A stretch of 64,000 nt of DNA from Chrysomallon squamiferum (taxonomy: Eukaryota; Animalia; Mollusca): positions 6,262,001 to 6,326,000 of the forward strand of contig CM022673.1 in NCBI GenBank assembly GCA_012295275.1, written 5' to 3'. The notes under the pieces were generated by a model. The model was not told where the DNA came from. It was given only the letters and a program-made list of their open reading frames with translations, and ran no database searches. Of this stretch, positions 20,932 through 24,171 are shown one piece after another (positions within the stretch are counted from its first letter, which is position 1; each line of letters opens with the position of its first letter). The translations under genes were made by a program, and so were the position numbers.

Positions 20932-21087
20932 TTAAAATTCGGGAGACTGACAAAGACTTTGAAGGTTAGCGATTCTCTCCCTTTTCAGCTCTTTTATTTT
21001 CCGTTGTTCGTTCGATCGGAAGTGACGTAGATCCTTATAATGACGGGGGTCAAGCATCTGGATAATGTTCCGAGGGTTGCATAATTT
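20932..21087 (-). CDS. cdc25: Cdc25-like exon 7, terminal (KLCNPRNIIQMLDPRHYKDLRHFR...QSPEF*)
   Basis: Acceptor TCTCATCTTAG|, TAA at 20934-20932. Resembles the Cdc25 C-terminus (C.P..Y..M......DL..FR). Confidence 0.9.
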   Translation of the reverse strand, partial: KLCNPRNIIQMLDPRHYKDLRHFRSNEQRKIKELKRERIANLQSLCQSPEF

Positions 21088-24000
21088 CTAAGATGAGAAT
21101 AAAACAAAACGAAATAAAATAAATTGCTTATATAAAATTTAACTCAAAGTTTAATAATAATAATAATAATAATAATAATAATAATAATAATAATAATAAT
21201 AATAATAATAATAATTTTTTAGATATCATTAATTATGGTAATTATGATGTCATAACGAAATATTCTTTGATTTAATGGAGAGAGAGAGAGAGACAGAGAG
21301 AGAGAGAGAGAGAGAGAGAGAGAGAGAGAGAGAGAGAGAGAGAGAGAGAGAGAGAGAGAGAGAGAGAGAGAGAGAGAGAGAGAGAGAGAGAGAGAGCTAC
21401 AGTTTATTATTTATTTCAAAACACTTACCTTCTGATGTTCAAAGAAACTCGAGTATCCGCCTTCAAGTAAATAAACCTCTGGACAGTAAAGGTATGGATA
21501 TCTGTTGGAGTTTAACTTTCTGTCGGCGTCCCGGAAATATCCGAATCTGTCCGAAGGTAAACAACGTAAAATATTAACACGATTCATAAAATAAAAGCAT
21601 TTAAATATATATATATATATATATTATCTGTATGATACACTAAGAAGATAAACAAAAATAGTAAAAACCACAACAGACATTAATGAACTTATGCCGCAGA
21701 AAATAATTAAGTGTTAAAGCCGCTACGACGACGCGAACTCATCATTTATCGGTTTTCAGGCATGCAGCTTAAGCACATATTGTTACAAGTCATTATCTGT
21801 ATAATTATATTCGTTATTATACTCACATCTGAGAACTTCTGACACAAGTTTCTGAATAAAAGATAATGACTCTTTTTTCGTCATCCTTGTTCGCCTGTGA
21901 ATTGATATTTTGAAGAAACCTGTCAGCGCCTTCCTGTGTGTAGATGTTAATAGCTCCCTGTGAAAATAAAAACAGAATTAAAATTTAATATTAATTTCAT
22001 TAATTAACTGTGAAGAAGCATTGACTCACAGAAATTAATCACACCCAACCCCTTAAGACAAAACCGAAACCAACGACAAATGAAATATAATTATATTTGT
22101 GTAAGTGTATATAAATGTTTCTATCGACTTGTTCGTACGTATGTATAGGTTGGTGTGTTTGTATGTAAGTGTATGTGTATGTATGCATATATTTTTGTGC
22201 ACAAATGCATGCATGATTCCAATGTATGTATGTATGTTTGTATGTATGTATGTATGTATGTATGTATGTATGTATGTATTTAAGTATGTATGTATGTATG
22301 TATGTATGTATGTATGTATGTATGTATGTAAGTATGTATGTATGTAAGTATGTATCTATGTAAGTGTGTATGTATGTAAGTATGTATGTATGTAAGTATG
22401 TATGTGTGTATGTCTGAATGAATGCGTACTTGCACATATGGTAAGACTGACTAATTCATGGATAAACAGAACGAGCTGTGGTTTTTATATAGCCTTTACG
22501 TAAAAGTTTGTATAACAACATTAAACTTTTGTTACAAGCATAAATTATTCACAATATCAAACTGTACGCAGAAACGGTGCTCACCTTTACGTGACCGCCA
22601 TTGTATTCGTAAGGATATCTGCAGTCAATGATGTGACGCTCTCCGATGTCTTTGTATTTCCCACGAACAACGTCAGCTACCTGCAAAAACAACGCAAACA
22701 CTTTTAATAAACTGTGTAATGTTTGTTTGTTTATTGTCCTGTACACATCTGACAGTGTTTGTTTATCAACAGAACGGCGAGTGTTTTTGTTTGACTATTG
22801 GTAATCAGCTTGCAAACGTTCGACAGTTCTGACAGCGTCTTTGTGATTTCATGATGTATAGTCCTCTAAACTTTTGGCCACAGTAATAATTATTAATGGC
22901 AGCCTTGGGAAACTGAGTATCTGAGATCGATTCGTATTGTGAGACGGTTATGAACGGAATAAAACGCACAAGACGGCGATAACGTAACTGAGTTTAAATG
23001 CGATGAGCTGCTTACCACGGAATGATCAATGCACTTAGTTCCACATTGGTTTTCTTTTACTACCGGCAGAGAGAAAATCTGTAAATACAAAAATAGAAAT
23101 TAAAATAGAAACCTAAATGCGAATAGATATAAGAGCAGCAATACAATTAAATTAAATTAATATTAACAATGGAATTGCATTAGCTTAAAAATATTAGAAT
23201 AGAATATTTTTAATATTAAATAAATAAATTAATTAATTAATTAAAATTGAAAATGAAATAATTACAATTTAAAAAAATAATAATAATAAATAAAAATAAA
23301 ATAAAATAATTTAAATAAATAAATAATTAAAACTTACACGACTTCCATCACTAATGCAATCTTCGTTGTCATGTAACGTTTCTGTAAGTTTATCGGTTAT
23401 CTCCCTTGACGGAAACGTAAATTCTAACGCAAACTGCGCATGACGTCGGAGTCGTTTCCTGGGTCTTGATACGTCTTCCTCGGACGAATCTGTATCGTCA
23501 CTGGACTGGGTACGTTGTCGTTTGTTGGTGAAAAGTCGACGTCTTGAAGAACGATGTCGTCGTGAATGTACTTCAGATGACTGATCAGGAAAATTAAGAA
23601 ATTGCTGAAATAAATAAATAAATATTATAACTATGTTAATATACTATCATTAAAATTATTACTAATACTACAGCTACTGTTTCTGCTATAACAACTACTA
23701 CGACTGTTACTATAAGTCGGGAATATATACTTGAAATGCAAAGCTGTTATGTTTGAGAGCAAATCAAAACTGTTAGTTTCGCAATAATAGTATCGTCATC
23801 ATTTCTATATAAAAATTTTTTTTATATAAAACAAATAGAAAAAAACACCCAACTATTTTCATATTAAGCAATCCCTAGCTTAAATAAATAAATAAATAAC
23901 AGCATCATAGTCAATACTATATAGAAAGAAAGAATTATAACAGAAAGGTAAAACGATTTTTCGTATTAAGCGAGCGAGCTTTGTAGTAAAAGAAACAAAA

Positions 24001-24171
24001 AAATAAAAAATTCTCTCTTACCTCCAGTTCAGACAGAGGGGACCCCAAACCACTGTCACTAGCATCTTCGTCGTCAGACACACAAACAAACGGACTGTCG
24101 GTCAGACACCGTTCGTACACGCGAGCCATACATACAGGAGTTGGATTATCTTGATAAATTTCGAAAGCCAT
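20932..24171 (-). CDS. cdc25: Cdc25 (M-phase inducer phosphatase) family gene, 7 coding exons, 326 aa, catalytic loop degenerate (probable pseudophosphatase). Exons: 24171-24022, 23604-23338, 23078-23016, 22680-22585, 21957-21827, 21546-21429, 21087-20932
   Basis: Six GT-AG introns with compatible phases (0,0,0,0,2,0) give an uninterrupted ORF. It carries the Cdc25 rhodanese signatures [41 protein letters not shown]..FF and LCNP....M.DP....DL..FR. Confidence 0.93.
21429..21546 (-). CDS. cdc25: Cdc25-like exon 6 ([39 protein letters not shown])
   Basis: Acceptor ACAG|, donor AAG|GTAAGT, 118 nt. Contains the CH2-B motif YLLEGGY..F. Confidence 0.95.
21827..21957 (-). CDS. cdc25: Cdc25-like exon 5 (GAINIYTQ...KRVIIFYSETCVRSSQ), active-site exon
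   Basis: Acceptor TTTTCACAG|, donor AT|GTGAGT (phase 2), 131 nt. GAINI and KRVIIF align to Cdc25; the loop is divergent. Confidence 0.93.
22222..22405. repeat. (ATGT)n microsatellite in Cdc25-like intron 4
   Basis: Read directly from the sequence. Confidence 0.95.
22585..22680 (-). CDS. cdc25: Cdc25-like exon 4 ([32 protein letters not shown])
   Basis: Acceptor TTTTGCAG|, donor AAG|GTGAGC, 96 nt. Contains the Cdc25 CH2-A motif [10 protein letters not shown].GGH. Confidence 0.96.
23016..23078 (-). CDS. cdc25: Cdc25-like exon 3 (IFSLPVVKENQCGTKCIDHSV)
   Basis: Acceptor TTTACAG|, donor GTG|GTAAGC, 63 nt. Resembles the Cdc25 LP.V...H.DLK.I segment. Confidence 0.88.
23338..23604 (-). CDS. cdc25: Cdc25-like exon 2 (89 aa, QFLNFPDQ...RRRLF...RPRKRLRR...EDCISDGSR)
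   Basis: Acceptor TTTCAG|, donor CGT|GTAAGT, 267 nt open. The end, CISDGSR, resembles the Cdc25 LIGDFSK motif. Confidence 0.88.
24022..24171 (-). CDS. cdc25: Cdc25-like exon 1 (50 aa, MAFEIYQD...DSGLGSPLSELE)
   Basis: ATG at 24171, donor GAG|GTAAGA, phase 0. TATA box about 95 bp upstream. Contains a DSGxxS motif. Confidence 0.82.

Follow-up and report, generated by a model that had tools for sequence, protein, structure and literature searches.

A short Cdc25 paralog of Chrysomallon squamiferum predicted to be catalytically dead

A 64,000-nucleotide stretch of the Chrysomallon squamiferum genome (contig CM022673.1, positions 6,262,001 to 6,326,000, referred to here as the window) carries a minus-strand paralog of the cell-cycle phosphatase Cdc25 whose catalytic loop is altered, raising the question of whether a phosphatase has here become a regulator of cyclin-dependent kinase (CDK) without activity of its own or is a duplicate in decay. 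The initial annotation proposed a pseudophosphatase that acts as a natural substrate trap, holding CDK-cyclin phosphorylated on tyrosine 15 (pY15). The analysis described below indicates that the gene is a real and probably undescribed dead Cdc25 variant, less trap-like than was proposed.

Gene model and catalytic loop

The model joins seven exons on the minus strand (Table 1) into a coding sequence of 981 nucleotides and 326 amino acids with zero internal stops, and all six introns are of the GT-AG type with 12 of 12 splice dinucleotides intact. Joining the exons in this way confirms the open frame and the canonical splice sites of the initial annotation, with splicing itself inferred from those sites and from homology. 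An additional exon may lie upstream of exon 1, where the reading frame stays open for 29 codons without another ATG. Metatranscriptome runs X2-X4 (0.01 of words) give no exon cover and are uninformative on expression either way.

The product is a member of the Cdc25 family by descent, with a rhodanese-type Cdc25 domain that includes the YP-L--PE-Y-L-GGY motif. Exon 6 matches the human CDC25A, CDC25B and CDC25C chains at E about 2e-5 and the core motifs are kept, in agreement with the earlier description of a conserved fold. Exon 7 is without a sequence match in the PDB, a search of the ESM Atlas returned bacterial rhodanese clusters only, all under 0.8, and tblastn located no second Cdc25 copy within the 64-kb window.

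The canonical HCEFSSERGP sequence is replaced by YSE-TCVRSSQ: His has become Tyr, Cys has become Ser, one residue is missing and other positions differ as well, all within exon 5. The resulting loop, Y226-S-E-T-C-V-R232, places four residues between the serine and the arginine and contains neither HCX5R nor an equivalent CX5R; YSETCVR stands in place of the catalytic sequence, in line with the dead active site of the initial annotation. Only E228 and R232 are retained, and the family F, S, S, E/Q and P positions are lost. The change of His to Tyr alone is no mark of death, as 7 of 125 aligned relatives (114 named molluscan proteins and 11 without a name, two beetle proteins being left out) carry Tyr in an FYCEFSSER variant with CX5R intact (oysters P0214, P0234, P0259, P0267 and P0279; pearl oyster P0285 and P0292). 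Genomic-type contigs of a divergent haplotype (run X1) span exons 5 and 6 and list no difference at the loop (21838-21858), so the dead loop is no assembly error. An alternative exon-5/6 junction restoring CX5R was set aside because there is no more than one donor of the same phase close to the end of exon 5 and the exon itself contains the lesion, and C230 was rejected as a shifted nucleophile because there is no Arg six residues further. Judged from its sequence, the product is catalytically dead.

Surfaces facing CDK-cyclin

When conservation is set at 85% of family members or more, 71 alignment columns qualify; the window gene retains 44 of them, against a family median of 69 and a next lowest value of 57. 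The 27 losses occur in runs, which is matched by 7 of 100000 shuffles, or, once the five frameshifted columns are left out, by 58 of 100000. The losses were mapped on the CDK2-cyclin A-CDC25A structure using the segments described in the available portion of its report (PMC11316097; numbering via the 8roz_C alignment), with scoring carried out after the losses were known. On this post hoc basis the substrate-facing segments have lost 16 of 24 conserved columns compared with 11 of 47 elsewhere (p=0.0007), and within them the loss amounts to 1 of 6 columns for alpha-4 and 15 of 18 for the three remaining patches (p=0.007, likewise post hoc).

One of the three remote CDK-cyclin contact patches survives. 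The alpha-4 hot spot R446/R450/Y455 of CDC25A is intact as R241/R245/Y252, the same positions as R488/R492/Y497, which PMC6270710 describes as remote hot spots of CDC25B for its substrate. The loop lying in the CDK groove (CDC25A 350-358) has decayed from G[KR]HxDL to ENQCGT, with N149 at the position of CDC25A K353, where 121 of 125 relatives have K or R. At the C-terminal motif R299 (R502 in CDC25A) is kept and the equivalents of K504, R506, T507 and W508 are lost, N301 and Q303 occupying the positions of K504 and R506. Among the ten residues that make the key contacts in CDC25A, the window gene matches 4 exactly and 1 conservatively, and 5 are lost or lie in shifted frame. Of the binding motifs said at first to be retained, the hot spot on alpha-4 and the RRRLF near the N-terminus are present; the helix motif at the C-terminus and the loop in the groove are lost.

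As far as the consulted part of PMC11316097 describes, the phosphotyrosine is bonded by CDC25A loop residues 431, 432, 435, 436 and 437, cutting or charge-reversing the C-terminal helix abolishes CDK2-cyclin A binding, and CDC25A(C431S) binds CDK2-cyclin A phosphorylated on T160 only, so that pY15 is not required for docking. The laboratory traps CDC25A(C431S) and CDC25B(C473S) (PDB 8ROZ; same partial source) share with the window gene the Ser in place of the catalytic Cys and the equivalents of R446/R450/Y455 and R437. They differ in having a complete catalytic loop of seven residues, the groove loop at 350-358 and the helix at the C-terminus, none of which is intact here, the phosphate loop being one residue short quite apart from its nucleophile.

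The frame is open throughout, as the initial annotation stated, but its claim of no frameshift is not confirmed for exon 7, where an apparent insertion of 13 nucleotides and a later compensating deletion are seen relative to the family. The family motif KSKSWTAGE, for which 120 of 125 members supplied the consensus, can be placed on the DNA 13 nucleotides downstream of its expected place, in the +1 frame and now with two stops; 5 of its 27 bases differ there, compared with 15 in the present frame. This is the best fit in the whole coding sequence (the next best has 8 differences) and is equaled in 11 and 12 of 20000 tail shuffles, for a motif and region picked after inspection by eye. The last residues, SLCQSPEF, resemble SLICQSPLF of the short paralog P0096 in the present frame, which implies the compensating deletion. 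Alignment of the shifted and in-frame tails against the closest relative, P0166, costs about the same (32.5 and 33), so it is the family consensus that carries the case for the frameshift; with P0096 and P0126 the shifted version wins. The KSKSW helix motif thus appears, on this comparison, to have been put out of frame by a compensated frameshift. The tail at residues 296-313 is still basic (8 K/R versus 3 D/E), and this new basic tail might stand in partly for the lost helix.

In the N-terminal region the initial annotation pointed to retained ligase- and cyclin-type motifs. DSGx[GE]S is found in 18 of 22 and R[RK]xLF in 20 of 22 Gigantopelta and Haliotis paralogs, so both are inherited family traits and not peculiar to this gene; their retention in a fast-changing region is nonetheless notable. 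The sequence DSGxxS acts as a beta-TrCP degron. Residues 3-8, FEIYQD, fit the ABBA consensus (as given in the available text of PMC5717348), a match present in 0 of 106 family N-termini and arising in 1.9% of shuffles, several motifs having been tried; it may be fortuitous or a motif acquired for binding Cdc20. A KEN sequence at residues 147-149 lies within the decayed groove loop and was set aside as probably chance.

Table 1. Positions in the window of the exons of the Cdc25 paralog and of the displaced C-terminal motif
Feature	Position	Strand	Content
Exon 1, residues 1-50	24022..24171	(-)	ATG; ABBA-like FEIYQD, 24148-24165; DSGLGSP beta-TrCP-type degron, 24037-24057
Exon 2, residues 51-139	23338..23604	(-)	RRRLF cyclin-docking-type motif, 23530-23544; basic cluster; start of Cdc25 domain (DGS)
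Exon 3, residues 140-160	23016..23078	(-)	Decayed CDK-groove loop, 23034-23060, equivalent to CDC25A 350-358
Exon 4, residues 161-192	22585..22680	(-)	Cdc25 core motif, intact
Exon 5, residues 193-235/236	21827..21957	(-)	Predicted dead catalytic loop YSE-TCVRSSQ, 21829-21858
Exon 6, residues 236-275	21429..21546	(-)	CDK hot spot R241, R245, Y252 kept, 21498-21533; core motif
Exon 7, residues 276-326 and stop	20932..21087	(-)	LRHFR kept; residues 301-316 in apparently shifted frame; C-terminal SLCQSP in family frame
KSKSWTAGE relic, out of frame	20973..20999	(-)	Reads K*KS*KGRE in +1 frame

Three other features of the window were recorded. On the minus strand at 57142-57618 an open exon contains repeated amidated-peptide motifs ending MLRL-GR/GKR and PRI-GR; there is no Pfam match, and we take it to resemble a molluscan myomodulin-type neuropeptide precursor. 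A C-type lectin domain exon lies at 52025-52309 on the minus strand (Pfam Lectin_C, E 1.8e-8), with further exons probable near 53480-53608, and at about 40650-41250 a tandem array of short imperfect repeats produces repetitive open frames in three frames.

The molluscan family and signs of selection

Short Cdc25 paralogs of about 250-400 amino acids (P0096, P0178-P0301) are numerous in gastropods and bivalves; some lie in tandem, as in Patella caerulea (locus tags SNE40_007877-007887), and many copies are present in Haliotis, Mytilus and Mya. A search with exon 6 gave 499 representatives at E of 0.001 or below, of which 150 were inspected. A profile search matched 479 proteins, and the best 120 of these were inspected, nearly all being gastropod or bivalve "M-phase inducer phosphatase-like" proteins. 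The literature searched, which excludes most subscription papers, contains no account of this expansion.

The window gene has the features of this group, with a length of about 300 residues, DSGx[GE]S and R[RK]xLF in the N-terminal region and a grouping with gastropod paralogs. The best matches to the whole model are short paralogs of Gigantopelta aegis and Haliotis, the top blastp match among 304 proteins compared being G. aegis XP_041349142 (P0166) with 36% identity and 166 bits. P0166 and the short Cdc25s of Haliotis, Patella, Lottia, Mytilus, Mya, Pecten and oysters share with it a length of about 300-330 residues, the DSGxGSP and RRxLF N-terminus, the Cdc25 core and a similar C-terminal end, but P0166 has HCEFSSQR and RSKSW where the window gene has lost both. 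A 25-row LG+G4 tree places the two as sisters with support of 95/90 and branches of 1.01 for the window gene and 0.48 for P0166. A 63-row tree puts the window gene inside a gastropod-rich group (Shimodaira-Hasegawa-like approximate likelihood ratio test, SH-aLRT, 81), and a 65-row mixture-model tree leaves it unplaced. Both branches are long, and we are unsure of the exact position that these sequences support.

The CX5R sequence is kept in 123 of 125 aligned relatives. In P0031 (Gigantopelta XP_041349138), which is 94% identical to the intact P0166 and has siblings of 130 and 138 residues, the loop Arg is lost, and in P0233 (Haliotis cracherodii), otherwise close to intact paralogs, the catalytic Cys is changed to Arg; either could be a copy that died recently or an artefact of annotation. 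The profile used for ranking was drawn largely from active proteins, and for this reason more dead paralogs may be present among the other 359 of the 479 profile matches.

The divergent haplotype of run X1, with 28 listed differences over about 750 bases, provides a comparison of exons 5 and 6. Of 49 silent sites in the coding sequence 3 have changed, as have 2 of 200 replacement sites and 23 of 503 intron bases. The ratio of replacement to silent polymorphism (pN/pS) is 0.16; on five changes only, p is 0.054 when silent sites are the reference and 0.022 when introns are, which is weak evidence of continuing constraint. In simulations of neutral point mutation, 1.8% of runs keep an open frame once 18% of residues have changed and 0.2% once 25% have, a result that rejects only wholly neutral change.

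The absence of a nucleophile, the shortened loop, the kept fold core and the clustering of losses together support the pseudophosphatase part of the original proposal. Because the losses fall on the substrate face while the core is kept, a selected pseudophosphatase is tentatively favored over plain decay.

Possible functions of a dead Cdc25

The reading we tentatively prefer, without regarding it as established, is that this dead short Cdc25 paralog is likely selected as a folded domain and would dock weakly on the GDSEID surface of CDK, competing with active paralogs and not trapping phosphorylated CDK. Assuming that the gene is expressed, the hot spot and the N-terminal RRRLF would give low-affinity CDK-cyclin binding, docking would occur on the GDSEID surface without reading pY15 and in competition with active Cdc25 paralogs, and DSGLGS would confer regulated destruction, the net effect being a mild phosphorylation-blind damper or adaptor. 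From its sequence the protein could do no more than compete weakly at the surface of the kinase or serve there as an adaptor; a weaker brake acting through the remaining hot spot is possible. A fuller version, in which selection has made a phosphorylation-blind CDK brake on the GDSEID site, paired frameshifts have swapped the cyclin-binding helix for a basic tail and an ABBA motif has been gained, all tuning the expanded molluscan Cdc25 family, we regard as doubtful.

Several observations weigh against a selected, CDK-docking protein. The polymorphism test stands on five changes in 249 bases. The ortholog search suggested with the initial annotation was run and yielded no ortholog with the same dead loop among the relatives inspected, and a weak search with exon 5 among longer proteins gave 2 candidates and no match. 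The nearest relative has an intact loop, turnover in the family is fast and the damaged copies P0031 and P0233 are present. The hot spot alone may bind nothing, because CDC25A without its C-terminal helix loses binding, and its residues may have been kept for structural reasons.

Some of these points are shared by the best surviving alternative, an expendable duplicate dying in a birth-and-death family, in which constraint lapsed first on the substrate face, the gene has no present use and the frame is open as decay is incomplete. The many short molluscan paralogs, some of them in tandem, the damaged or partial copies, the lack of a dead ortholog among relatives inspected and the long branch are all in keeping with such a duplicate. 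The other damaged copies, however, carry one local lesion each, in contrast to 27 clustered losses with the core kept, and the intact frame and splice sites, the apparent compensation in exon 7 and the depletion of replacements in the haplotype comparison are likewise at odds with it, and we consider it unlikely on balance.

Somewhat less likely still is a selected pseudophosphatase whose partner is not CDK-cyclin. Dead phosphatase-related domains that dock a kinase are known in the inactive Cdc25-homology (CH2/rhodanese) domain of the MAP-kinase phosphatases and in EGG-4 and EGG-5 of Caenorhabditis elegans, which are pseudophosphatases. These differ from the Cdc25 domain of the window gene, CH2 being one domain of a larger enzyme that binds MAP kinases and EGG-4/5 having a protein tyrosine phosphatase fold and binding a DYRK kinase. 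The protein could similarly be a docking or scaffold domain, or a carrier of the DSG, RRRLF and ABBA-like motifs that titrates ubiquitin ligases, as might be suggested by the loss of three of the four segments that face the substrate from a protein whose fold core is kept, and by an ABBA-like motif absent from 106 family N-termini. Retention of all three CDK hot-spot residues argues against this, as do the frequency of ABBA matches in shuffled sequences and the probably fortuitous KEN.

A natural trap that holds pY15-CDK1/2-cyclin tightly through its Cys-to-Ser loop and blocks activation is improbable: inactive CDC25B and CDC25C mutants are dominant negative in human cells (available portion of PMC2174228), and the Ser at the nucleophile position, E228, R232, the hot spot, RRRLF and the basic replacement tail are as such a trap would have them, but the idea is weakened because the loop and helix needed for trapping are lost, the loop being shortened and mostly replaced without the family FSS and P or the pTyr15-bonding equivalents of S435 and E436, the helix required for complex formation being apparently out of frame, and less than half of the key CDC25A contacts being identical.

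No natural characterized Cdc25 pseudophosphatase was found in the literature searched. A vertebrate Cdc25d possibly without a phosphatase domain is described in the accessible text of PMC9178385; it belongs to a vertebrate lineage with no orthology implied, and the domain of the window gene differs in being recognizably whole. In the part of a snail study consulted, CDC25 is treated solely as a spermatogenesis marker (PMC13072017).

Dead Cdc25 has so far been familiar as a laboratory tool. If the gene were silent, it would be an ordinary casualty of family turnover. If its product is expressed and binds CDK, it would represent an activator turned into a damper of the cell cycle, and would offer a natural means of asking whether docking can be sustained by the remote hot spot alone. 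The expansion of short Cdc25 proteins in molluscs may matter as much as the dead paralog itself.

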